Numbered from the stretch's first letter, positions 6,665 through 63,548 are shown. The stretch is 64,000 nt of DNA from Oscillospiraceae bacterium (GCA_031551635.1 JAVBNH010000006.1:11208-75207); one strand, 5' to 3'. The notes: generated from the sequence alone by a model not told the origin. A program made the numbers and translations.

Positions 6665-6730
6665 TAACATGGCTTGGCTTGCCAAGCCCACAACCCCAGT
6701 CGTGTTTTTATTGAGCATTCAGCCCAATAA
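6665..6730 (+). repeat. ~75-bp palindromic intergenic element, copy 2 (5' arm degenerate)
   Basis: taacatggcttggcttgccaagcccacaaccccagtcgtgtttttattgagcattcagcccaataa. Confidence 0.85.
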
Positions 6731-22908: not shown

Positions 22909-23170
22909 TGCCGGTCAGCTCCTTTTCTATCAGTTCATAAACCTCGTCGGGAACTGAGCACTCAAAAGCCCTTTCAAAGCGTCTTGCTTTGCGCGCCTTT
23001 TTAAAGCATTCAACGCTGCGGCACAGATAGGCGCCCCTGCCGTTCTTGCGTCCGGTTAAATCAAGGCTGATTTCACCTTCAGGGGACTTGACTATGCGCA
23101 CCAATTCTCTTTTAGGTTTCATTTCTCCGCAGCCATTGCATTTTCTGAGCGGAACCTTTTTTGTTATCAA
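22901..23170 (-). CDS. ylxR: YlxR/RnpM (DUF448) RNA-binding protein
   Basis: RKCNGCGEMKPKRELVRIV. TTG start at 23170 with SD AAGGGTGA upstream. Confidence 0.85.
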   Translation of the reverse strand: MITKKVPLRKCNGCGEMKPKRELVRIVKSPEGEISLDLTGRKNGRGAYLCRSVECFKKARKARRFERAFECSVPDEVYELIEKELTGSE

Positions 23171-23183
23171 ATAATCACCCTTG

Positions 23184-23232
23184 CTGGATTCTGGATTCTG
23201 GATTCTGGATTCTGGATGCTGGATTCTGGATA
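23184..23232 (+). repeat. heptamer array (CTGGATN)x7
   Basis: ctggatt x4, ctggatg, ctggatt, ctggata. Located between the nusA stop and the ylxR start. Confidence 0.95.
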
Positions 23233-23248
23233 TTCTATGAATGTTGCA

Positions 23249-28397: not shown

Positions 28398-28411
28398 TTT
28401 TATATCCCTCC

Positions 28412-28618
28412 TTATTTCTCAACCGTTATCGCGCAGTCCGGACACATAAGAGCGCAGGACTTGCAGGCTATGCAGGCTTCCATATCAATGCACATTGCCG
28501 GATGATAGCCTTTGTCGGTCATTTTTTCCATGTCAAGAGCCATAATTTTTTTCGGACAAGCGTCAATGCACAATCCGCAGCCCTCGCAGAAGTTTTCGTC
28601 AACTGTTATTTTTCCCAT
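28412..28618 (-). CDS. 4Fe-4S ferredoxin-type delta subunit
   Basis: 68 aa with two clusters, CEGCGLCIDACP and CIACKSCALMCP. Confidence 0.85.
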   Translation of the reverse strand: MGKITVDENFCEGCGLCIDACPKKIMALDMEKMTDKGYHPAMCIDMEACIACKSCALMCPDCAITVEK

Positions 28619-28657
28619 ATGCTATCAAGCCTTTCATTAATATTTAAATGATACATT

Positions 28658-28685
28658 ATCTACAATCTAATGTCTAATATCTAAA
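28658..28685 (-). repeat. heptamer array, minus-sense TAGATAT TAGACAT TAGATTG TAGAT
   Basis: Covers the last codons and the TAG stop of the P-loop NTPase gene. Confidence 0.85.
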
Positions 28686-29350
28686 TTATTCCACGGCAGT
28701 TTTACTATTGTCTCCACCGGGAAGGGATTTTCAATTTTTTTCTCCAGCTCGCTCATTATTGCCTTGGGGACAGTTGTCAGCATGAGCGGCAGTCCTGTAA
28801 CCCTGCTGACTTCGCGGGCATATTCACAGCCTGATAAAATATCCGCGGCGGAAGTTTCCAGAGAAAGATGCGAATTATTAACAAGCGCGTTCATCGTAAG
28901 GTGCGAAGCCGCTTCAATCTCCCTCAAAAGCTCCAAAGCGTCAAGAGGGTTTTCAATCATTCGACGGAATTTATTTATAACAAAAATTCCGAGGTACCCG
29001 TCGTTTCCCTTTATATCATCGGCATACCGCCCGAGTGCCGTAGCTCCTGCGTCGTCCCCGCCGACATCAAAAAAAACATGGTCAGCGTCACCGCCGAAAA
29101 CCGAGGAAATCTCAGCGGGCAGATATGGCGCGTCAAGAGTGGTGTTTGCGCTGCCGGGCGAAATCAGGCGTATTCCGTTGCCCTCGAGCTCTCTGCGGTA
29201 ATCGGACGAACGAAAATAAGGGTTGACTATATCGAGGTCAACAAGGGTGACCCGCCTGCCCTGCCGCGCGAGCCCAAACGCCGCGTTAAGAGCGAAATTA
29301 GTCTTGCCCGTGCCGTAATGACCGCAGATTATATTATATTTCCGAAACAT
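28667..29350 (-). CDS. P-loop NTPase (MinD/ParA/CobQ-like)
   Basis: Deviant Walker A GHYGTGKT and the hydrophobic strand-Asp run VTLVDLDIVNP. SD GGGAGGG. The last 5 codons and the TAG stop lie in a heptamer array. Confidence 0.6.
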   Translation of the reverse strand: MFRKYNIICGHYGTGKTNFALNAAFGLARQGRRVTLVDLDIVNPYFRSSDYRRELEGNGIRLISPGSANTTLDAPYLPAEISSVFGGDADHVFFDVGGDDAGATALGRYADDIKGNDGYLGIFVINKFRRMIENPLDALELLREIEAASHLTMNALVNNSHLSLETSAADILSGCEYAREVSRVTGLPLMLTTVPKAIMSELEKKIENPFPVETIVKLPWNNLDIRH

Positions 29351-29396
29351 AAAACCACCCTCCCTGTATCAAGAATCCAGGTTAATGCTGTTTTAG

Positions 29397-29417
29397 TGTA
29401 CAATGTACAATGTACAA
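29397..29417 (+). repeat. heptamer array (TGTACAA)x3
   Basis: Three perfect tandem units. Confidence 0.85.
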
Positions 29418-29578
29418 ATAGAGGTCGGGTAGGTAGAATTATGTGTGTTTTTACCTTTTCACCCGACTTGATTAAAGAAAATACATAATTTACCTGCCAT
29501 TAAATCAGCAAACTTATATTATTAAAATCATTCGCGAGCAGAATGTTAATAGCTACCGCAATTTAACTCGCGACCGCC

Positions 29579-29620
29579 ATCCAGCGTCTAGTATCCAGCA
29601 TCCAGTGTCTAAACTAGAAT
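29579..29620 (-). repeat. heptamer array, minus-sense CTAGTTT AGACA CTGGATG CTGGATA CTAGACG CTGGAT
   Basis: Six units with a 7-bp period, abutting the ispH-S1 terminator. Confidence 0.85.
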
Positions 29621-29651
29621 AAAAGTAAGGGCAGGAAACCCGACCCTTACT
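29617..29651 (-). terminator. rho-independent terminator after ispH-S1
   Basis: Minus-sense AGTAAGGG-loop-CCCTTACT followed by TTTTATT. Confidence 0.6.
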
Positions 29652-29662
29652 ATAATATTCAT

Positions 29663-29690
29663 TTGTACTCTGTACTGAGTACATAGTACA
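29663..29690. repeat. heptamer-like array TTGTACT CTGTACT GAGTACA TAGTACA
   Basis: 7-bp period. It is the partial inverted complement of the array at 29397..29417 and ends 1 nt before the ispH-S1 stop codon. Confidence 0.7.
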
Positions 29691-29691
29691 C

Positions 29692-31749
29692 TTATTCAGC
29701 CGCCTTATCCGCGCCGGCAAGCAAATCGTCAATTGAAACCGGCTCGCTCTTTTCGCCGTCCGCAGCCATCTCAGCCTCGAGTGATTCCTCTTCCTCCTCA
29801 GGAACGAGAAGGGCTCTTATCGAAAGACTGACGCGTTTTTTATCAAAGTCGATTTCTGTAATCTTCGCCATGACTTTTTCACCCAGAGAAACAGCCTCCT
29901 GAGGGGCAGCGATTCTCTTTGCGGAAATCTGCGAGATATGAATCAGACCGTCAACGCCGGGAATGATTCGCCCGAAAGCGCCAAAGGTGGTCATGCCAGC
30001 GATTTCAACCTCTACAACACTGCCGACGGGATAATCTCTTCTGAGAACCTCCCACGGATTGTCCTCAACCTTTTTGTATCCCAGAGAAATCTTCTTCTTT
30101 TCATTATCAAGGTTCTTGATATATACTTCGATTATGTCGCCCGGCTTGACAACGTCAGACGGATGCTTGATTCTCTTCCACGAAAGCTCGCTTCTGTGAA
30201 CAAGACCGTGTACTCCGCCAAGGTCGACAAAGGCACCGAATTCGGTGACTGAAACAACGGGACCTGTAAATACCTGACCAACCGCAGCAGTCTCCCAGAA
30301 GGAATCGGTCTTTTGCTTGCGCTCAGACCTGTAAGCGGCGCGGATTGAACCGACAGCGCGGCGCTTTTTCTCAGCGTCAACAATGGTGAAGCTGACTGTT
30401 TGGTTAAGTAAATCCTCAAGCCGGTCATTTCTCGAAACAGTCGCAAGAGAAGCGGGTATAAAGATTCTGTTACCGTTTGAAATAACGATTACACCCTTAT
30501 TTATAACTTCGACAACTTTACCGGAAAGAATAGTGCCGTCTTTTTCGGCTTTGACTATCTCGTCCCAATAGCGGCTCTCATCAATGAGACGCTTGGAAAG
30601 CAATATAGTTCCTTCCATGTCGTTTGTTTTCATAATAACCAGTTCAAGCTCGTCGCCGACTTTAAGCTCTTTTGAAGGGTCAGCGGTAGGATCCGCTGAG
30701 TAATGGTCAATCGGAATGAGACCTGTCTGCTTTCTTCCGATGTCAACCTGAATTTCGTTCGGAAGAATTCTGACGACTGTGCCCTTTACTTTTTTGTCGG
30801 TGCTCATGCTCTTAAGTGATTCCTCGAGAGCGTCCTCAAAGGACATTTCGTCGTAGTTCACTTCTTTTAGCGCAGCTTCTTGTGCTGCTTCTTCATTTGT
30901 GTTTTCAATAATGTCGGACATGGTGTTCCGTACCTCCTTAATTATACTGTCGGGCGTTGAAGCCCCGGCAGTAATGCCTACATTGCGGCAATTCGAAAAA
31001 TCAAGCCCTGAGAGCTCACCCGCATCCTCAACCAGATAGGTTTTGCAGTTCTCCTCGCAGACGGCGCGAAGCTTGTCTGTGTTTGAGCTGCACCTGCCTC
31101 CGACGACTATCATGCAGTCGTTTTCGAGGGATAATCGGCGAGCCTCCTCCTGTCTTTCAAAAGTCGCACTACATATTGTATCAAATATTAACGCATTTGT
31201 ACATAGTAAATTTACAAATTTCAAACATTTTTTAAATTCACTCACAGAGAAGGTTGTTTGAGCCACTAAAATGAATTTCTTTTTAATATTTTCATTCTCA
31301 AAAATCTGTTCTAGCTCCTCAAGAGAGTTAAAAACATAGGATTTTCCGCCACAATAGCTACGTATTCCAAGCACCTCCGGGTGATTTTTGTCGCCCGCAA
31401 TGAGGGTGTCCACCTCGTCCGATGAATTTTCAGCGACAATGCGTTGAATTTTTTTCACAAACGGGCAGGTTTCATCATTGAATTTAAGCCCCATTCGCTC
31501 TAGCTCCTCAAGCACATCCTTAGTCACTCCATGGGTTCTCACAAGGGTTGTATAGCCCTCAGGGGCTTCCCCTGGGGATTCAATTATTTTAACCCCCTGC
31601 TTCTTTAAATCGTCAATAAACTGCGGATTATGAATAATCGGCCCGAGCGTGCAGACCCTTTCGCCTTCGTCAATAAGCTTCGAAAGCCTTGACACGGCTC
31701 TGTTTACGCCGAAACAAAAGCCCGCGGTTTTTGCAAGTGTGATTGCCAT
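29692..31749 (-). CDS. ispH: IspH (LytB) fused to ribosomal protein S1 repeats
   Basis: N-terminal IspH domain (AKTAGFCFGV...) and C-terminal multiple S1 domains. This fusion is common in Clostridia. Start taken at ATG 31749; the track GTG start is 31761. Confidence 0.9.
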   Translation of the reverse strand: MAITLAKTAGFCFGVNRAVSRLSKLIDEGERVCTLGPIIHNPQFIDDLKKQGVKIIESPGEAPEGYTTLVRTHGVTKDVLEELERMGLKFNDETCPFVKKIQRIVAENSSDEVDTLIAGDKNHPEVLGIRSYCGGKSYVFNSLEELEQIFENENIKKKFILVAQTTFSVSEFKKCLKFVNLLCTNALIFDTICSATFERQEEARRLSLENDCMIVVGGRCSSNTDKLRAVCEENCKTYLVEDAGELSGLDFSNCRNVGITAGASTPDSIIKEVRNTMSDIIENTNEEAAQEAALKEVNYDEMSFEDALEESLKSMSTDKKVKGTVVRILPNEIQVDIGRKQTGLIPIDHYSADPTADPSKELKVGDELELVIMKTNDMEGTILLSKRLIDESRYWDEIVKAEKDGTILSGKVVEVINKGVIVISNGNRIFIPASLATVSRNDRLEDLLNQTVSFTIVDAEKKRRAVGSIRAAYRSERKQKTDSFWETAAVGQVFTGPVVSVTEFGAFVDLGGVHGLVHRSELSWKRIKHPSDVVKPGDIIEVYIKNLDNEKKKISLGYKKVEDNPWEVLRRDYPVGSVVEVEIAGMTTFGAFGRIIPGVDGLIHISQISAKRIAAPQEAVSLGEKVMAKITEIDFDKKRVSLSIRALLVPEEEEESLEAEMAADGEKSEPVSIDDLLAGADKAAE

Positions 31750-31790
31750 ACTTCTCACCACTATATTATATATTTTTTACTTTTCATTCT

Positions 31791-32468
31791 TCATTTTTCA
31801 TTAGTTAGAATTTCAAAAATAATGTTCATCATCGCCTCAAGCGCCTGCTCAACCGACATCCCCGATGTATCAAGCAGCACAGCGTCCTCCGCCTGCTTCA
31901 ACGGCGCAATTTTTCTATGTGAATCCTGGTAATCTCTTGCGATTATTTCCTGCTTCAGCTCTTCAAAATCAACCTTGTTTCCCTTTGCCGTCAGCTCGTC
32001 AAAGCGTCTTTTCGCCCGCTCCTCAACAGAGGCTGTGAGAAAAATTTTTACATCCGCGTCCGGCAGAACAACTGTTCCGATGTCACGCCCGTCCATGAGA
32101 CAATTATTCTCTTTCGCCATATTTTTCTGTTGCTCCAGCAAAAAGGAGCGAACCTCAGGCAGCTTTGAGACATTCGACGCCGCCATTGAAGCCTCCGGCA
32201 GCCTTATCGCATCTGATACATCCTCGCCGCAGAGGAAAACCCTCTGAATCGAATCGATGTACTTCAGCTCCACTGACAATTTCGGCAAAACCGCCAGAAC
32301 ATCGCTGCTCTTAGCCGTGTCCAGCCCTGCCCTCAGCACTCCGACACCGATTGACCTGTAGAGCGCGCCGGTGTCAATGTAAATATATCCGAGTTTCGCG
32401 GCGGCAAGCCTCGCGACTGTGCTCTTACCCGCACCGCTCGGACCGTCAATTGCTATGTTTATACTCAT
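31791..32468 (-). CDS. cmk: cytidylate kinase
   Basis: IAIDGPSGAGKST. Start chosen at the third in-frame ATG (32468), 9 nt after GGAG; the track start is 32483. Confidence 0.93.
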   Translation of the reverse strand: MSINIAIDGPSGAGKSTVARLAAAKLGYIYIDTGALYRSIGVGVLRAGLDTAKSSDVLAVLPKLSVELKYIDSIQRVFLCGEDVSDAIRLPEASMAASNVSKLPEVRSFLLEQQKNMAKENNCLMDGRDIGTVVLPDADVKIFLTASVEERAKRRFDELTAKGNKVDFEELKQEIIARDYQDSHRKIAPLKQAEDAVLLDTSGMSVEQALEAMMNIIFEILTNEK

Positions 32469-32523
32469 TGTACTCATCTCCATTATTATTTCAGCTTTCG
32501 CACCTTTAAAAAGCCAACTTTTT

Positions 32524-32551
32524 AATGCTTGATGCTGGATGCTAGATGCTG
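32524..32551 (+). repeat. heptamer array AATGCTT GATGCTG GATGCTA GATGCTG
   Basis: Contains CTGGATG/CTAGATG units and continues into GAAGAGGTCGCG. Confidence 0.8.
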
Positions 32552-32779
32552 GAAGAGGTCGCGTATTTATCGCTATTTGGAAATAAAATTATAGCTCGCG
32601 TGGTGATTATATACTGATCCGCATTAAAATAGCTTCTAACTGTCGTTCGCTAATCCTTTTGCACTCTTACAAAAGGGCTCACTCCATTAGAAGCTTTTTA
32701 ATGGAGGATAAGTATTAATATAATTGTCCGCGTCCAGAGAGTTTAATTAAAAGTTAATGCTGAATCGCGACATCTTCCA

Positions 32780-32807
32780 ATATCTAATATCTAAAATCTA
32801 ATATCTA
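32780..32807 (-). repeat. heptamer array, minus-sense (TAGATAT TAGATTT TAGATAT TAGATAT)
   Basis: The first TAG is the stop codon of CDS 32805..34058. Confidence 0.9.
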
Positions 32808-34058
32808 AAACAGCGCATTTTCTCCCGCGATAAAGCCGGTTGAAAAGGCTATTTGTAAATTAAACCCGCCGGTATAGGCATTGACGTCTATGACCTCCCC
32901 CGCGAAAAAGAGATTGGCGCATTTTTTCGAGCGCATGGTTTTCGGCTCGATTTCGCCGACACTCACCCCTCCGCAGGTGATAATCGCCTCTTCAATCGGG
33001 CGGAAGGCACGCACATTCAGCTTTAATTCCTTCAGACACATAACAAATTCCGCACGCATCTCACGCGTGAGTTGATTAGCCTTCATCTCATGAGGAATTC
33101 CGCACAAATCGAGAATTACCGGAATCATCGCCCGGGGCAGCAGCTCATTAAAAGCGTTTACGGCAGCTTTATTAGAGTATTTCGCAATATCACGCTGTAT
33201 TCGGCTGTCAAGCTGAGTGACACTCAGCCCCGGTTTCAAATCAATAACTATCTCGTATTTTGTCTTGTCAGCATCCCGCATATGCGCGCTGGCGCTGAGT
33301 ATCACAGGACCCGATACACCGAAATGGGTAAAAAGCATCTCGCCGAAATCCTCATAAATATCTGCGAAGCCGTCCTTATCACGAAGCTTAAGCGAAACAT
33401 TTTTCAGTGCAAGTCCCTGAAGCTCTGCGCAGAAGCTTTCGGCGGTTTCAAGAGGTACAAGCGATGCCTGCGGCTGTGTAACTGTATGCCCAGCCTGTTT
33501 TGCGAGCTCATAGCCGTCGCCGGTTGAACCGGTCAGGGGATAGGACACGCCGCCTGTCGCGACTACAAAGGACGAGGCAAAAAACTCCTCACCTTCATAT
33601 GTTCTGACTCCTGTAATCAGCGGTGTTTCGTTATTCTCATTAAAAATGAATTCTTTAACGCGTCCGGCAATTCGTTTTACACCGCTTTTCTTCATAAAGC
33701 CGCCCAGCGCGTCAACAATATCAACAGCCTTGTCCGAGACCGGAAAAACCCTGTTACCCCGCTCGACTTTGAGCGGAACTCCCAGCTCTTCGAAAAAATC
33801 CATGGTATCCGAGGGCATAAAACGCGAAAACGCGCTGTAGAGAAAGCGTCCGTTTGTGGGCACGGCTTCGATAAGCTCATTGAGCATGGAGCAGGCATTG
33901 GTCACATTGCAGCGCCCCTTGCCCGTAATCATCAGCTTGCGCCCGACGCGCTCGTTGCGCTCGATTACAAGCACGCTTTTGCCTCTTTCGGCAAGCTTCC
34001 CCGCGCACATCATGCCCGCCGCTCCCGCGCCAATTACAATACAATCTGTTTTTTTCAT
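32805..34058 (-). CDS. HI0933/BaiN-like NAD(P)/FAD-dependent flavoprotein
   Basis: DCIVIGAGAAGMMCAG dinucleotide fold, 417 aa. The stop TAG is the first unit of a heptamer array. Confidence 0.8.
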   Translation of the reverse strand: MKKTDCIVIGAGAAGMMCAGKLAERGKSVLVIERNERVGRKLMITGKGRCNVTNACSMLNELIEAVPTNGRFLYSAFSRFMPSDTMDFFEELGVPLKVERGNRVFPVSDKAVDIVDALGGFMKKSGVKRIAGRVKEFIFNENNETPLITGVRTYEGEEFFASSFVVATGGVSYPLTGSTGDGYELAKQAGHTVTQPQASLVPLETAESFCAELQGLALKNVSLKLRDKDGFADIYEDFGEMLFTHFGVSGPVILSASAHMRDADKTKYEIVIDLKPGLSVTQLDSRIQRDIAKYSNKAAVNAFNELLPRAMIPVILDLCGIPHEMKANQLTREMRAEFVMCLKELKLNVRAFRPIEEAIITCGGVSVGEIEPKTMRSKKCANLFFAGEVIDVNAYTGGFNLQIAFSTGFIAGENALF

Positions 34059-34114
34059 ATCTTTATTATTTCATTCCTATATTGTTTAAAATAAATTATG
34101 CATTATGAATTAAG

Positions 34115-35347
34115 TCATACCTTAACTATAGCATCTGTATATTCCGTATCGGCATTCTGAACTGTCGGCAGCGTCAGGTTATAAACCGCCGCAGCTCTCG
34201 CCTCAAGCTCAAAAAACCGCTTCGCCTGCGCTCCCAAACCTGCAATCTCGGCAGCTCTTGTAACGAGTGGAAGCCCTGCCTTTTTTTTCGCGGTATTCAA
34301 GAGCGTCCGCCCTTTTTCGTTGAAGCCGAGCACGCGAATATATGGTATATCCGACTGAGTGAAATCCTTTGTTATCCCGAGCAGTGAGGAGAGAACTATC
34401 CTTCTTATACGCGAATGTGTATAGCGTTTTGTTTTCGCCAGTGCATAAAGCTCCTCAATGCTTTTTGCCCTGTTTGCCGCGTCTTTTATCCTATTCTCAA
34501 GCCCCTCTGAAACATCAGGATACCGCAGTAAATCTTCAGTATTTTTCATTCTCAAATCATATAATACAGCTTTTTCGACTGCTCTCATATCTGAGGGAAG
34601 GCAACCCTTATCAAGCTCTCTGAGTATAATATCAGCGGCGTTTTCGGGCATTTTGCCGGAAATATATTCGCCGATTTTTTCCCTTGCGCTCTCGCGGTCA
34701 TAGCTGTAGAAAATTCTTTTTATTTCCTCGCGCAGCTTGCTCGCTGAGGCAAAGCCTTCGTTTGTAACATCGCTGTCATGAGCTGCGCCGAAACGCTTCA
34801 CCGCGAAAGGCTCAATATTTGAATTAATCCGAATTAAAGCCCTTGTATACTCAAGGGACAATATATCATTCGGCGAGTGCAGCAGCTCAAGCTCATCAGA
34901 AGCCATAAAGCTATTTGCATTAGCTTCACGCGCTCTGGGGAATGATACACCTTCTTCTAAAAAATTTTTAATTTTTTCATCACTATCAAGTTGCAGCAGC
35001 TTTTCGGCGGTTGTTTCAATCAGCCTCGTGTCTCCGCATTCGCTTCCGAAGGAGAGCATATCGACAACACCCAGTGCCTCGGCAATCGAAACCGCGCCGT
35101 AAGCGAACCTCTGAGCGCTCGCTGTGGCAAATGGCAATGGCAGCTCGAGCACAAGGTCCGCGCCGCATCTGAGAGCCGTCTCAACTCTCGAACGCTTCGG
35201 CATTACTGCGCTCTCACTGCGCTGTACAAAGTTTCCACTCATAACGGCTACTATGGTGTCAGCACCTGCTTCAAGAGTGCGGTCAATATGATATTTATGC
35301 CCGTTGTGAAACGGGTTATATTCGCAGACAATAGCGGCAACCTTCAA
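34115..35347 (-). CDS. tmcAL: tRNA(Met) cytidine acetate ligase (YlbM/TmcAL family nucleotidyltransferase)
   Basis: EYNPFHNGH motif. Probable TTG start giving MKVAAIV; the track start is 35356. Confidence 0.8.
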   Translation of the reverse strand: MKVAAIVCEYNPFHNGHKYHIDRTLEAGADTIVAVMSGNFVQRSESAVMPKRSRVETALRCGADLVLELPLPFATASAQRFAYGAVSIAEALGVVDMLSFGSECGDTRLIETTAEKLLQLDSDEKIKNFLEEGVSFPRAREANANSFMASDELELLHSPNDILSLEYTRALIRINSNIEPFAVKRFGAAHDSDVTNEGFASASKLREEIKRIFYSYDRESAREKIGEYISGKMPENAADIILRELDKGCLPSDMRAVEKAVLYDLRMKNTEDLLRYPDVSEGLENRIKDAANRAKSIEELYALAKTKRYTHSRIRRIVLSSLLGITKDFTQSDIPYIRVLGFNEKGRTLLNTAKKKAGLPLVTRAAEIAGLGAQAKRFFELEARAAAVYNLTLPTVQNADTEYTDAIVKV

Positions 35348-35470
35348 AAAAAACACCCCGGATAAAACAATCTGTCACTATAATAAACTGATATCGTAAA
35401 ATTGTCAAATGAAAACATGTGTTTAGCAATTTGTCATAAAAAAAGCTTAAATCACACCTAAAAAATCGGC

Positions 35471-35499
35471 TTGCTTTTTAAAGGCTCAACATATATAAT
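35471..35499 (+). promoter_or_regulatory. ackA promoter
   Basis: TTGCTT, 17 nt, TATAAT. Confidence 0.5.
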
Positions 35500-35557
35500 A
35501 TCTGATGTATGAGAAAAACAATATTTATTGCTCAAAATGAAAGGAACGGATGAATCA

Positions 35558-36772
35558 ATGCTTGTATTGGTCATTAATGCAGGAAGCTCCTCGCTTAAAT
35601 ATCAGCTTATTGATATGAACGGCGAGATTTGCATCGCAAAAGGTGTTTGCGAAAGAATCGGTCAGGACGGACGGATTGAAGCCAAAAATCTTGCGAACGG
35701 CACAGAATTTACCGCCGAAATCGACATGCCGAACCATACTGTCGCCTTCCTTGAGGTCAAAAAAGCCCTTACAGGCGGCGAGGCTAAGGTTCTTGACGAC
35801 CTCGCGGAGATAGCCGCTATCGGTCACCGTGTCGTTCAGGGCGGTTCTTTATTTAATCACAGCGTAATTATCGATGATTCGGTTCTCGCGGGAATTGAAG
35901 AGCTCTGTGACCTCGCGCCGCTGCATAATCCCGCCCACCTACAGGGCATGCGCGCCTGCATCGAGGTTTTCGGCAAAGATGTCCCCGAAATTGCGGTTTT
36001 CGACAACGCCTTCCACAGCACTATGCCGCCTGAGGCGTATATGTTCCCGATTCCTTATGAATATTATGAAAAATATAAAATCCGCCGCTATGGCTTCCAC
36101 GGCACTTCTCACCGCTGCGTCAGTACCCGCTGCGCCGAGCTTTACGGCAAACCCATTGAGGAGCTAAAAATTATCACCTGCCACCTTGGCAACGGCTCGT
36201 CAATCACCGCGGTTAAAAACGGCAGTGTCGTTGACACAAGCATGGGGCTGACCCCCCTCGACGGCTTCATCATGGGCACGAGAACCGGAGGAATCGACCC
36301 CTCTGTTGTGACTTATCTACAAGCCAAGGAAGGCTGGACGCCTGAGCAGACGGACAGCATTCTCAATAAAAAATCAGGCGTACTGGGCGTTTCAGGCATC
36401 TCGAACGATGACCGCGACGTCAAGGCGGCTTCCCTCTCCGGCAACCACCGCGCAAAGCTCGCCCGCGATATTCAATGGTATCAGATACGCAAGTATATCG
36501 GCAGCTATATAGCAGCGATGGAGGGCGTTGACGCTATTGTTTTCACCGGCGGAATCGGCGAAAACACCTTTGATTTACGCGCGGATGTCTGCACAAGACT
36601 CTCCTTCTTGGGCGTTGATTTTAACAACGAAATCAACGAAAAAACCGTCAGAGGTGCGGAGGCGGAAATCACAAACCCCGGTTCAAAAATCCGTGTTTTC
36701 GTCATTCCCACAAACGAAGAACTGATGATAGCTCGCGATACGCAAATGCTGGCGGCACAATTTAGATTTTAG
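35558..36772 (+). CDS. ackA: acetate kinase
   Basis: INAGSSSLKY, GFHGTSH and EELMIARDT. Start at ATG 35558 (MLVLVINAGSSS). The last codons and the TAG stop lie inside a heptamer array. Confidence 0.95.
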   Translation: MLVLVINAGSSSLKYQLIDMNGEICIAKGVCERIGQDGRIEAKNLANGTEFTAEIDMPNHTVAFLEVKKALTGGEAKVLDDLAEIAAIGHRVVQGGSLFNHSVIIDDSVLAGIEELCDLAPLHNPAHLQGMRACIEVFGKDVPEIAVFDNAFHSTMPPEAYMFPIPYEYYEKYKIRRYGFHGTSHRCVSTRCAELYGKPIEELKIITCHLGNGSSITAVKNGSVVDTSMGLTPLDGFIMGTRTGGIDPSVVTYLQAKEGWTPEQTDSILNKKSGVLGVSGISNDDRDVKAASLSGNHRAKLARDIQWYQIRKYIGSYIAAMEGVDAIVFTGGIGENTFDLRADVCTRLSFLGVDFNNEINEKTVRGAEAEITNPGSKIRVFVIPTNEELMIARDTQMLAAQFRF

Positions 36773-36797
36773 ATATTAGACTGTAGATTTTAGACTG
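36763..36797 (+). repeat. heptamer array TAGATTT TAGATAT TAGACTG TAGATTT TAGACTG
   Basis: The second TAG (36770..36772) is the ackA stop codon. Confidence 0.9.
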
Positions 36798-39022: not shown

Positions 39023-39273
39023 CTGTTTTTCTGGTTTTTCTAGTGCTTCAGCACCTATCGGTAACACAAAGTCATGGGAAAGCTTGAGAAAGATAATTCT
39101 CTCAAGCTGATATATTTATTAATAAAATTTCATTAACTTCTAGGTAACCACTGATTAATTGATATTTACTCACTTTTGTATATTCTTAAATTTTCTGTCT
39201 GTGAACGATGATTAAATCAAAGATTGGATGCAATATAAAATAGATTATAAGGCGAAACCTTATCCTACAGCCC

Positions 39274-39294
39274 TGACTCCTGAATCCTAACTCC
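39274..39294 (+). repeat. heptamer array TGACTCC TGAATCC TAACTCC
   Basis: 7-bp period. The embedded 13-mer GCCCTGACTCCTG is shared with 51296..51308. Confidence 0.75.
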
Positions 39295-39318
39295 TGTGAA
39301 CGATGATCTTATCATCGT

Positions 39319-40059: not shown

Positions 40060-41187
40060 TTATCCCTTTAATTTTTCAAGTGACTGCATTTTAAGATACG
40101 CGTTAATGAAGCCGTCAAGGTCGCCGTCCATAACTGCGTTTATATTGCCGTTTTCGAAGTTTGTCCGGTGGTCCTTGGCGAGGGTATAGGGCATAAAAAC
40201 ATAGGAGCGAATTTGGCTTCCCCAGCCGATTTCCTTTTGGTCGCCCTTGATATCCTCAATCTTTTCAAGGTTTTCGCGCTCTTTTATTTCAATGAGCTTT
40301 GACTTGAGCATCTTCAGCGCAACCTCGCGGTTCTGGTGCTGACTTCTCTCCACCTGACACGAGCAGACAATGCCTGTCGGAATATGCGTCAGGCGAACAG
40401 CGGACGAGGTTTTGTTTACCTTCTGCCCTCCTGCGCCGCTCGCGCGGTAAACGTCCATTTTTATGTCGTCCGGGCTAATCTCAACGTCAACGGTGTCGTC
40501 TATTTCAGGCATGACCTCAAGTGAGGCGAAGGAGGTGTGCCTTCTGCCGGAGGCGTCGAAGGGCGAAACCCGCACGAGCCTGTGGATTCCCATCTCACTT
40601 TTCATATAACCGTAGGCGTTAATACCCTCGATTAATATAGTCGCCGATTTGATTCCCGCCTCGTCACCGTCAAGTATATCAAGCGTCGAGGTGGTGAAGC
40701 CGTGGCGTTCGCCCCAGCGGTGATACATGCGGAAAAGCATCAGCGCCCAGTCCTGAGCCTCGGTGCCTCCCGCGCCCGCGTGGAAGGTTAAAATTGCATT
40801 TTTAGAATCATATTCACCTGTCAGCAGGGTCGCGAGCGTCTGAGAATCAAGCTCTTTTTTTACATCATTGACGCTTTTCGTGCACTCCTCAAGCATCGAG
40901 GCATCCTCTTCTTCATTCGCCATCTCAATGAGTGTGAGAGCGTCATTAAAATCGTTCGCCAGCGTGCGGTAATCCTGAACACGGTACTTCAGGGCGCTGA
41001 TTCTCTGCATAACCTTCTGAGAGGTCGCTATGTCATCCCAAAAGCCGTCAGCGCCGGATTCTTCTTCAAGGCGGGCAATCTCAGCCTCCATAGCCTCGAG
41101 CCCGAGGGCTGCCGCGAGCTCCTTCAAGGGCTTTTCACTCTCAAGCAAGTATAATCTCAATTCGTCATACTGTAACAATATAATCAC
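40060..41187 (-). CDS. prfB: peptide chain release factor 2 (single uninterrupted ORF)
   Basis: SPF tripeptide (RVSPFD) and GGQ (SGAGGQKVN). GTG start with SD AAGGAA. Confidence 0.95.
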   Translation of the reverse strand: MIILLQYDELRLYLLESEKPLKELAAALGLEAMEAEIARLEEESGADGFWDDIATSQKVMQRISALKYRVQDYRTLANDFNDALTLIEMANEEEDASMLEECTKSVNDVKKELDSQTLATLLTGEYDSKNAILTFHAGAGGTEAQDWALMLFRMYHRWGERHGFTTSTLDILDGDEAGIKSATILIEGINAYGYMKSEMGIHRLVRVSPFDASGRRHTSFASLEVMPEIDDTVDVEISPDDIKMDVYRASGAGGQKVNKTSSAVRLTHIPTGIVCSCQVERSQHQNREVALKMLKSKLIEIKERENLEKIEDIKGDQKEIGWGSQIRSYVFMPYTLAKDHRTNFENGNINAVMDGDLDGFINAYLKMQSLEKLKG

Positions 41188-43730: not shown

Positions 43731-43807
43731 TTAGTACCTTAGTAGGCTGAAAGCTCAACAAAAAACAAGACTTGGGTTGTGGGCTTGGCAAGCCAAGCCC
43801 ACGTTAG
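43731..43807 (-). repeat. ~75-bp palindromic intergenic element, copy 3
   Basis: Near-identical to copy 1 and in the same orientation. Confidence 0.9.
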
Positions 43808-51207: not shown

Positions 51208-51214
51208 GTTTTTT

Positions 51215-51249
51215 TAGGGACTAGGGACAAGGAACTAGGGACTAGGAGT
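51215..51249 (+). repeat. heptamer array TAGGGAC TAGGGAC AAGGAAC TAGGGAC TAGGAGT
   Basis: Begins 8 nt upstream of the nagA start codon (minus-strand gene). Confidence 0.9.
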
Positions 51250-51373
51250 CGGTAAATGCTGATTTAAATTGTGAATCGGTATTAAGATGGATTATGCCCT
51301 GACTCCTGGCGACTGAACCTTATTTCCTAAAATCGATGTTTTAATCATCGTTTTCATAGTCCTTTCCTCCGAT

Positions 51374-57343: not shown

Positions 57344-57420
57344 CTAACGTTGGTAGGGCTTTGCCCTGCCCACAACCTAAGTCTTGTTTTTATTGAGCTT
57401 TCAGCCCACTAAGGTACTAA
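57344..57420 (+). repeat. ~75-bp palindromic intergenic element, copy 4 (variant first hairpin AGGGC-TTT-GCCCT)
   Basis: ctaacgttggtagggctttgccctgcccacaacctaagtcttgtttttattgagctttcagcccactaaggtactaa. Confidence 0.8.
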
Positions 57421-57534
57421 AAATTCTCCAAACGACTTTTTTATTTAAATATAATATATATATAACATCTTTTTTACTGAATATAATGACAAAATCAGAA
57501 ATAACGACAAATTTCGCATATTTTTTTTGCATTT

Positions 57535-58437: not shown

Positions 58438-58487
58438 ATGTGATGGTTAATGTTTCCTTCCGGCAAAATATGATTAAGATTTCTTAA

Positions 58488-58709
58488 CTAATGTGGGTTT
58501 GGCTTGCCAAGCCCACAACCCAAGTCGTGTCTTTTATTGAGCATTCGGCTCAATAAGGTACTAATGTGGGTTTGGCTTGCCAAGCCCACAACCCAAGTCG
58601 TGTTTTTTATTGAGCATTCGGCTCAATAAGGTACTAACGTGGGCTTGGCTTACCAAGCCCACAACCCAAGACTTGTTTTTTATTGAGCTTTCAGATCATT
58701 AAGGTATTA
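58488..58709 (+). repeat. three head-to-tail copies (73-76 bp each) of the palindromic element
   Basis: Units at 58488..58560, 58561..58633 and 58634..58709. The first two differ at a single position. Confidence 0.95.
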
Positions 58710-60903: not shown

Positions 60904-60929
60904 CCTTTCTTAAGAGAAATCAATGCGGA

Positions 60930-61015
60930 CTAACGTGGGCTTGGCTTGCCAAGCCCACAACCCAAGTAGTGTTTTTTATTGAGCTTTCAGCCCATTAAGG
61001 TACTAAAGGTACTAA
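60930..61015 (+). repeat. ~75-bp palindromic intergenic element, copy 8, with duplicated AGGTACTAA end
   Basis: ctaacgtgggcttggcttgccaagcccacaacccaagtagtgttttttattgagctttcagcccattaaggtactaaaggtactaa. The stop of the FIST-like CDS lies in the duplicated end. Confidence 0.9.
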
Positions 61016-62204: not shown

Positions 62205-62259
62205 AAAATCCAGTATCCAGCATCCAGTATCTAGCATCCAGTATCTAGCATCTAGAATA
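62205..62259 (-). repeat. heptamer array, minus-sense TAGATGC TAGATAC TGGATGC TAGATAC TGGATGC TGGATAC TGGATTT
   Basis: It is the inverted complement of the array at 63386..63502 and ends 15 nt upstream of the FIST-like gene ATG. Confidence 0.9.
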
Positions 62260-62461: not shown

Positions 62462-63388
62462 ATGAAAAAAGCAATTTCTCTAGCAATGGCGCTTCTAGCT
62501 ATTATCACATTATTTACTTCCTGCGGCGGTGGAGGCGGCGAAGAAACGACAACCTCAGCCGAAACCACTACACTTGCCGCTACAACTCTCGCGACCGGCG
62601 ATACAACCGTTCCCGTTCCCGGCACCGGCGACACAACAACAGCCGTTTCCGCCACAGGCACTGCGACAACCGTTCCCGGCACAGGCACAGCGACTACCGC
62701 CGCGCCGACAACTGTTGCCTCAAACAACTTCGGCGCTCCGGTTGGCGGAACTGTCGAGCAGATTGTTCAGTATTATAATACAAAGGCAAACGCTATAAAG
62801 CAGGAAAAGAATTTCTCAGTTAAAAGAGTACAGGATCAGTCAATAAAATTTGATGAGCCCGCACTGGTTGCCGCTGTTTTTAACGCTCTTCTTAAAGACC
62901 TGACAAAGGTTTCCACCTCTGACGAAGTCTTCGCAAACGGTGTCGGAACAAAAAAAGAGGGCAATACACCCGCGAAATACTTTACAGTGAAGGATAAGGA
63001 CTATGTCAGCCAGCTGACTGCAAACGGCGTCAAGAGCGCTGAATGCAAGGTTGAGGGCGACAAGGTTGTTATTACAATACTCCTGAATGAAGAAACTTGC
63101 AACGCAAAGGTGGTTCCCCCAATCTACGGCTCATGCATAAACAATATCACAGAAGACATCATTAATGTCAAAGAAGCAAAGATTTCCGACGATGCACAGG
63201 CTACATATTCAGCAGGAAGCATGAAGCTCACAGTCGACGGCGCCTCCGGTAAAGCCACTCAGCTCATTACACATGCTGAAGGAAAAATTAAGGGTAATGT
63301 CGAAGCCGGTACAATCACTTATCTGCCTACAGTTAAAAACGCTGTTGTTTCAGGCAAATTCACAGAAACATTTGATATGACATACTAG
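62462..63388 (+). CDS. lipoprotein with Thr/Gly/Ala-rich linker
   Basis: Signal peptide plus lipobox LFTSC, SD GGTGAGGAG, and a repetitive TTVPGTGTATT linker. Confidence 0.7.
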   Translation: MKKAISLAMALLAIITLFTSCGGGGGEETTTSAETTTLAATTLATGDTTVPVPGTGDTTTAVSATGTATTVPGTGTATTAAPTTVASNNFGAPVGGTVEQIVQYYNTKANAIKQEKNFSVKRVQDQSIKFDEPALVAAVFNALLKDLTKVSTSDEVFANGVGTKKEGNTPAKYFTVKDKDYVSQLTANGVKSAECKVEGDKVVITILLNEETCNAKVVPPIYGSCINNITEDIINVKEAKISDDAQATYSAGSMKLTVDGASGKATQLITHAEGKIKGNVEAGTITYLPTVKNAVVSGKFTETFDMTY

Positions 63389-63502
63389 ATTCTAGATGCT
63401 AGATTCTAGATGCTAGATTCTAGACGCTAGATACTAGATGCTAGATTCTAGACGCTAGATTCTAGACGCTAGATACTAGCGCTAGATACTAGCGCTAGCT
63501 GC
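63386..63502 (+). repeat. 17-unit heptamer array (TAGAYNC)n
   Basis: tagattc tagatgc tagattc tagatgc tagattc tagacgc tagatac tagatgc tagattc tagacgc tagattc tagacgc tagatac tagcgc tagatac tagcgc tagctgc. The first TAG is the lipoprotein stop codon. Confidence 0.97.
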
Positions 63503-63512
63503 TGTATGAGTA

Positions 63513-63548
63513 AGCCCCGGTAGTCTTTTACGATTACCGGGGTTTTTA
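63513..63548 (+). terminator. rho-independent terminator after lipoprotein gene plus heptamer array
   Basis: CCCCGGTA-loop-TACCGGGG followed by TTTTT. Confidence 0.75.

Follow-up and report, generated by a model that had tools for sequence, protein, structure and literature searches.

Why tandem heptamers should coincide with the stop codons of unrelated genes is the question raised by a 64,000-nucleotide stretch of DNA from an Oscillospiraceae bacterium (GCA_031551635.1 JAVBNH010000006.1:11208-75207; the window, below), in which short head-to-tail arrays of a TAG-bearing unit lie across the ends of open reading frames (ORFs). The unit family is written here as TRGAYNN (consensus T-R-G-A-Y-N-N), of which TAGAYNN and TAGATWT are subsets. 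In this gut or rumen Clostridia genome the arrays most probably add a case to a known and unexplained class of gene-end repeats, and are no termination device; the specific reading preferred here, that they are heptanucleotide simple-sequence repeats (SSRs) arising or surviving at the first unconstrained bases after a gene, is given a probability of about one half.

Four arrays coincide with stops in mRNA sense, as an earlier note on this DNA had claimed: those of the flavoprotein, AckA, CbiA-like NTPase and lipoprotein genes (Table 1). When the sequence was read directly, the stop of the flavoprotein gene (TAG 32805-32807; gene 32805-34058, minus strand) was unit 1 of its array and that of ackA (TAG 36770-36772; gene 35558-36772, plus strand) was unit 2. 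The HI0933-type flavoprotein ends in ...ENALF and AckA in ...AAQFRF; the AckA residues FRF had been described as array-encoded, which is correct for R and the last F, whereas the array supplies only the third base of the codon for the first F. In the CbiA-like NTPase (ORF 28667-29350, minus strand; C-terminus ...NNLDIRH) the residues LDIRH and the TAG stop do come from the array, the coordinates of which had been put at 28658-28685 and are 28656-28683; a distance of 49 nt separates it from the ferredoxin gene, downstream in the same operon. The fourth gene (ORF 62462-63388, plus strand) carries the lipoprotein signal LFTSC. Its array has a 14-nt higher-order period in Tandem Repeats Finder (TRF), is followed by an intrinsic terminator at ~63515-63548, and could self-pair as RNA via CTAG (fold z -5.6). 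Gene identities were confirmed with Pfam (PF03486, PF05636, PF00871 for ackA, and PF01656). Repeats supply five of the window's nine TAG stops. Reassignment of TAG was considered and rejected, as TAG frequency is ordinary and the proteins end at orthologous lengths; the one release factor encoded in the window is of RF2 type. The flavoprotein and ackA arrays had also been seen as an inverted pair bracketing flavoprotein, tmcAL and ackA. Their inversion simply reflects that each array runs in sense with its own gene, and the three genes are syntenic in an array-free relative (L001, below) and therefore do not form an array-bounded unit; a mobile three-gene block bounded by inverted arrays was rejected on the same ground.

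Table 1. Heptamer arrays and the 78-nt repeat in the window. Units are given on the strand named; positions are counted from the first nucleotide of the window.
Feature	Units or copies	Position	Strand	Relation to genes
Flavoprotein array	TAGATAT TAGATTT TAGATAT TAGATAT	32780-32807	-	unit 1 = TAG stop
ackA array	TAGATTT TAGATAT TAGACTG TAGATTT TAGACTG	36763-36797	+	unit 2 = TAG stop
CbiA-like NTPase array	TAGATAT TAGACAT TAGATTG TAGATAA	28656-28683	-	unit 3 = stop (TAG 28667-28669)
Lipoprotein array	~17 units, CTAGATK/CTAGACG	63386-63503	+	unit 1 = TAG stop
FIST-gene array	TAGATGC TAGATAC TGGATGC TAGATAC TGGATGC TGGATAC TGGATTT	62206-62254	-	between TATAAT box and Shine-Dalgarno of FIST-domain gene
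Array past ispH-S1 terminator	TAGACAC TGGATGC TGGATAC TAGACGC TGGATGG	29577-29611	-	just 3' of conserved ispH-S1 intrinsic terminator
nusA array	(TGGATTC)x7; GAAUCCA on mRNA	23185-23233	+	inside nusA-infB operon
cmk-leader array	TTGATGC TGGATGC TAGATGC TGGA	32525-32553	+	antisense to local genes
cmk array	TGAAAAA TGAAGAA TGAAAAG	31780-31800	-	unit 2 = TGA stop 31791-31793
tmcAL array	TAATTCA TAATGCA TAATTTA	34092-34112	-	starts 2 nt past TGA stop 34115-34117
ispH-S1 array, stop-free	GTACTAT GTACTCA GTACAGA GTACAAA	29662-29689	-	starts 2 nt past TAA
(TCCCTAG)-type array		51215-51246	-	ends 7 nt before ATG of amidohydrolase (nagA-like), no Shine-Dalgarno between
YAGGAKT heptamers	CAGGAGT TAGGATT CAGGAGT CAGGGCT	39272-39296		past small hairpin after DUF218 gene stop
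78-nt repeat	copies	1399-1476; 6671-6730; 43731-43807; 57368-57422; 58484-58706 (three tandem copies); 60929-61007		

Strict arrays of at least three T[AG]GA[CT] units numbered seven in the window and none in 100 first-order Markov randomisations. When the eight TRGAY arrays were placed at random, in either orientation, across non-coding DNA and the terminal 18 nt of genes (20000 trials), a mean of 0.41 arrays fell on a stop, compared with the four seen, and four or more did so in 9/20000 trials (P = 4.5e-4). Head-to-tail 7-nt units, longer than chance, were found by TRF in the window arrays, and period 7 dominated the TRF output over all sequences (296/577 rows). Because 7 is not a multiple of 3 and the unit holds TAG, three TAG-bearing units place a stop in every frame within 21 nt; any sense array that touches the end of an ORF therefore becomes the stop of that ORF.

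About 16 heptamer arrays were located in the window by TRF and a period-7 autocorrelation scan, all in spacers; those touching genes overlap the last 0-5 codons at most. The window arrays are non-coding and lie at the edge of constrained protein sequence. In a motif-free test covering positions -14 to +40 relative to each stop, period-7 structure was present at 8/52 gene ends, as against 0-2 gene ends for periods 5, 6, 8, 9 and 10; it was also present in 4/53 regions upstream of starts and in 0/2000 samples of coding interiors. Besides TAG units, the eight comprise TGA-bearing (cmk), TAA-bearing (tmcAL) and stop-free ones (ispH-S1), as well as (GAATCCA)x7 past nusA. Six neighbouring genes (CbiA-like, ispH-S1, cmk, flavoprotein, tmcAL and ackA; 28656-36797) each carry a period-7 array at or just past the stop. 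At the RNA level, no structure was predicted for the TAGATWT arrays (fold z 0.11 for the flavoprotein array, -0.93 and 0.44) or for the nusA array (0 kcal/mol), and a terminator scan placed no intrinsic terminator (G+C-rich hairpin plus T run) at the arrays; ordinary terminators stand beside two of them instead. The whole window gave no match to Rfam 15 at the gathering score, and a tRNA scan of it was empty.

The nearest database relatives of AckA, 81-82% identical, came from Oscillospiraceae-type metagenome-assembled genomes (MAGs). The relative L001 (AckA 81% identical) has the same gene order as the window (POR-CbiA-ispH-S1-cmk-flavoprotein-tmcAL-ackA), and no heptamer array was found in its 21 kb; its spacers measure 7-43 nt, and the flavoprotein-cmk spacer is 15 nt there versus 321 nt in the window. 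The ackA genes of L002 and L003 also end with TAA and no array, and the relative's genes stop with TAA or TGA 1-4 codons from the array-bearing positions of the window. The AckA tail reads DTQMLAAQFRF in the window versus DTQDLVK-TAA or DTQELTK-TAA in relatives, that of the flavoprotein AGENALF versus AGRSVCAE, and that of the CbiA-like protein PWNNLDIRH versus PWNAGK. AckA tails past ARDT span about 5 to 20 residues in 18 orthologues, and the C-termini differ between window and relatives only in such unconserved tails. The earlier note had proposed checking whether native C-termini were replaced or extended; in this alignment array-free orthologues share neither C-termini nor stops with the window genes. 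By these comparisons the arrays are recent: they were gained after the split from the syntenic relative and replaced unconserved tails and TAA or TGA stops.

The association with ORF ends was then measured in a wider sample. GTDB representatives were scanned for four TAGAY units at 7-nt spacing (at least 120 loci) and metagenome contigs for TAGAYRT x4 (120 more loci); the conserved-core look of these loci is imposed by the search pattern. The sample consisted of 277 TAGAY arrays from many phyla, or 225 after removal of loci with similar flanks, and the TAGAY counts that follow are among the matches listed, which include cyanobacteria, Bacteroidota, Acidobacteriota, Gemmatimonadota, candidate phyla radiation (CPR) bacteria and several Clostridia MAGs. 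For ORFs of 100 codons or more in the same sense, the distance between the closest upstream stop and the start of the array was taken, and it peaks sharply at zero. Arrays overlapping a stop or within 30 nt of one made up 87/225 (39%) in the sense orientation and 30/225 (13%) in the antisense orientation (P = 1e-9). For arrays that do not overlap a stop, the ratio of distances of 1-30 nt to distances of 31-400 nt was 44:49 in sense versus 20:106 in antisense (P = 5e-7). As GC-rich genomes yield spurious long ORFs, which swell the in-array class, the sample was stratified by GC; the sense bias was found in every band, including that below 45% GC (ORFs of at least 150 codons only). Arrays and ORF ends are genuinely associated, in an orientation-dependent way, far beyond the window, and the random placement relative to stops that would have spoken against the earlier note was not seen in this sample. 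ORFs ended in unit 1, 2 or 3 of an array in 24, 12 and 13 cases. When all period-7 arrays were taken, whatever the unit, stop-free orientations peaked 1-12 nt past stops (19/177), and stop-bearing orientations additionally overlapped the stop (54/361). Among the Clostridia MAGs, a flavoprotein ends in ...LDVRY at an array (L005) and a mini-RNase III in ...QFRC (L019). The Pfam domain match of an ArgRS (L007) runs through the last residue, and the array starts 3 nt past the TGA, so that the gene is not invaded; here constraint on the protein appears to set the boundary of the array.

Taken as SSRs, the arrays would belong to the class known as long SSRs or short tandemly repeated repetitive (STRR) sequences, multiplied in an Oscillospiraceae-like lineage mainly as one TRGAYNN family. 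Tandem duplication or slippage would give rise to an array where the first bases free of constraint follow the coding sequence, or arrays would survive in that place only. With an array present, the native stop could be lost and the dispensable C-terminal tail could suffer small deletions or frameshifts without harm, which would account for ORF ends in units 1, 2 and 3, and the end state would be an ORF reading 0-2 units into the array, with no role in translation or transcription termination required. The ~17 units and 14-nt super-period of the lipoprotein array were counted as an indirect sign of slippage. Several observations weigh against this reading. A pure tolerance filter predicts no near-stop enrichment of sense arrays that do not overlap a stop, and such enrichment is seen. 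SSR expansion adds units and leaves the flanks intact, so that stop-hugging must reflect either the site of birth or later deletion, neither of which was directly observed. Within the eight window arrays, positions 1, 3 and 4 of the unit varied in 0/147 cases and positions 5-7 in 35/147, and such invariance is unlike random microsatellite decay. These eight unrelated loci share the TRGAY core, which independent births from random stop contexts should not do, and since relatives stop these genes with TAA or TGA, an ancestral TAG was not simply the seed of the arrays. Finally, the arrays are clustered: six consecutive genes have them, whereas the first 22 kb is free of them and none of the 22 genes in positions 1-22600 has a period-7 array at its stop.

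The earlier note had offered two accounts, that arrays insert or are selected at ORF ends, or that they function at translation termination or the 3' ends of mRNAs; an origin at ORF ends, or tolerance there alone, agrees better with the data. Conserved operons (CbiA-ferredoxin-POR and nusA-ylxR) contain two of the arrays, one array precedes an ordinary intrinsic terminator, one comes after a terminator and others are in 5' leaders; stop-free heptamers also hug stops, the TAGATWT arrays are unfolded, and L001 does without arrays. A different function is conceivable given the conserved T-R-G-A core, which might be a functional site in RNA: the arrays could form an unstructured U-R-G-A platform with 7-nt spacing, past stops or in leaders and spacers, used by a multimeric single-strand RNA-binding protein or an endoribonuclease to tune mRNA decay or the next cistron. 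This is considered unlikely, though it has points in its favor: the T.GA core is invariant and the spacer variable in the window arrays, placement depends on orientation, the TAGATWT arrays are unstructured, and imperfect arrays of narrowly 4-5 units recur in the window and at the unrelated Clostridia genes for flavoprotein, ArgRS and mini-RNase III. There is also a precedent in HutP, which in the Bacillus hut leader reads three XAG triplets separated by four unspecific bases, at a period of exactly 7 nt with sequence-independent spacers, and requires a pair of these sites, separated by 12-17 nt with a terminator stem between them, upstream of hutH (PMC2425495). TAG arrays have at least three XAG at 7-nt spacing and are predicted to be single-stranded, but TGGAT units lack the AG that HutP needs, and the two-site architecture is absent, the window having single runs of 4-17 units downstream of unrelated genes with no flanking G+C stem. 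Neither HutP nor a similar family was found among the 50 window ORFs scanned. Moreover, arrays occur in both orientations to transcription and beside genes of unrelated function, other heptamer units are placed likewise, the relative with the same operons is array-free, and the conserved core of the database loci was forced by the search pattern. The broader proposal, that U-R-G-A at 7-nt spacing past stops forms an orientation-specific signal in RNA, widespread among Clostridia, Bacteroidota, Acidobacteriota, cyanobacteria and CPR bacteria and read by a ring- or filament-forming RNA-binding protein or a G|A-preferring endoribonuclease such as RNase Y once the terminating ribosome uncovers the motifs, is decidedly improbable. 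If true, the signal would determine what becomes of the 3' end or the following cistron and would give a common functional cause to the heptamer stop-hugging that has been noted three times in the literature and left unexplained.

Delivery in preformed blocks, such as the termini of small non-autonomous elements with an insertion preference for DNA right after coding sequence, is quite unlikely, although one family does occur over many loci and positions 32783-32801 and 36762-36780 share a 19-nt identity. A parallel is seen in one Pyrinomonadaceae MAG, where (TAGACAG)n arrays in inverted pairs flank a partly conserved 55-70 nt core, and most copies examined have at least one arm at an ORF stop or within ~14 nt of it. 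No element of that type was found at the window arrays: those of ackA and the CbiA-like gene have no partner, the partner of the flavoprotein array is 226 nt away with a different unit, and the core is shared nowhere else. The 321-nt flavoprotein-cmk spacer, which is 15 nt in the relative, has inverted arrays at its bounds, but its two arms differ in unit sequence. The 62206 and 63386 arrays are likewise inverted around the lipoprotein gene, and a 78-nt repeat in the window also provides a stop codon; against this, three of the four on-stop arrays have no nearby inverted partner, array-bearing spacers share nothing beyond the arrays, and no target-site duplications were found. Selection for back-up stops, to catch read-through at a leaky TAG or a frameshift near the gene end, is very improbable. 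Every frame is stopped within 21 nt and repeats account for the share of window TAG stops given above, but the next in-frame TAG lies 21 nt on and is a poor back-up, the arrays extend far past three units, stop-free heptamers occupy the same position, TGGAT arrays hold no stop, and a single TAA or TGA suffices in relatives.

Heptameric STRR sequences were reportedly described in cyanobacteria by Mazel et al. in 1990. Like the long SSR and STRR sequences, the window arrays are head-to-tail, heptamer-dominated, sporadic over lineages and mainly non-coding, as far as published summaries of that class go. In genomes rich in units of 5-11 nt, heptanucleotides are the commonest long SSR and are credited to polymerase slippage (Mrazek 2007, as summarised in PMC4679880); that summary describes neither a TRGAYNN family nor a Clostridia host. 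A like placement is found in the GGGNATC heptamers of Xanthomonas and Nostoc, which prefer ~4 units and, on the sense strand, are strongly biased towards positions right beside a stop or overlapping the ORF (Rehm et al. 2015, PMC4692102). They too are tandem intergenic heptamers, and they are transcribed and vary between close relatives (PMC4692102). Their units are G-rich, quadruplex-capable and without a stop, whereas the TAGAYNN units of the window are A/T-rich, lack G-tracts, become the stop and have a Clostridia host. The TAACTGA repeats of marine Beggiatoaceae, cyanobacteria and Bacteroidetes stop three frames when forward, and 13 sets overlap the stop of the upstream gene (MacGregor 2015, PMC4679880). 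They resemble the window arrays in being intergenic, without RNA structure and scattered over taxa; they differ in unit and stand mostly just upstream of starts, where they replace the ribosome-binding site, a placement that in the window only two arrays approach, one in the FIST-gene leader and one, (TCCCTAG)n, at 51215. Geobacter metallireducens has many copies of an element of 4-5 tandem heptamers, proposed to be regulatory (PMC2700814), with GC-rich units (GGGACCG, MTYCTGA) that occur inside genes too; the element is not known to be linked to stop codons. What is new here is the TRGAYNN unit family and the Clostridia host for a stop-hugging pattern that had been described and left unexplained.

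The bias in the database sample is strong across phyla, depends on orientation and goes beyond a tolerance of overlap. Because the arrays rewrite the last codons and stops of ordinary genes, they affect gene-end annotation, the comparison of orthologue C-termini and estimates of stop-codon usage in MAGs; if functional, they would amount to an unrecognised post-stop RNA signal.

The remaining arrays of the window occupy leaders and spacers. The array at 62206-62254 fills the gap from a TATAAT box to the GGGGGG Shine-Dalgarno and ATG of the FIST-domain gene, and is probably its whole 5' leader; its GGAUG motifs resemble CsrA sites. The nusA array begins 16 nt past the nusA TAA and ends 3 nt before the ylxR Shine-Dalgarno. 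The 321-nt spacer between the flavoprotein gene and cmk holds the array at 32525-32553, 42 nt upstream of where cmk starts; ispH-S1, which has arrays at its 3' end, is a fusion gene. Two short genes absent from the long-ORF list, ylxR (DUF448-like, after the nusA array; region 22909-23248) and the 4Fe-4S ferredoxin gene after the CbiA array (region 28398-28666), are recognisable in the spacer sequences, in an order that matches L001. A CCAGGAGTCAGGG string similar to the YAGGAKT heptamers recurs at ~51270-51290 in the 51208-51373 spacer. A shared leader or mobile promoter, TATAATCACC...CGACCTCT, beside three arrays was rejected because the alignment was weak (score 29) and the motif barely above chance.

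The ~78-nt repeat occurs in nine copies in spacers, with 87-96% identity, and contains two hairpins, TTATTGAGC...GCTCAATAA and GTGGGCTTGGC AA GCCAAGCCCAC; it looks like a repetitive extragenic palindromic (REP) or miniature inverted-repeat transposable element (MITE)-type element. Its core had no exact match in the metagenome collection. The copy at 60929-61011 opens with the TAG that stops the FIST-domain gene. The Pyrinomonadaceae elements stand at L023 6400-6570, L054 4350-4490, and L058 1830-1990 and 7175-7289. An on-stop array in another database locus, L067, was rejected as a genuine case, as no family matches its ORF, which sits in non-coding DNA rich in repeats; beside the TAG-heptamer arrays of that locus (270-365 and 1395-1608) are ~30-nt repeats, GTTTCAATTCCCGATAGGGGTAAGGTAAG, at ~63-nt spacing, which may be a decayed CRISPR array. 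The release factor gene of the window (40060-41187, minus strand) encodes the SPF motif, which identifies RF2; in its N-terminal region an upstream ATG frame runs into GTA TGA C, and the gene may contain a programmed frameshift.

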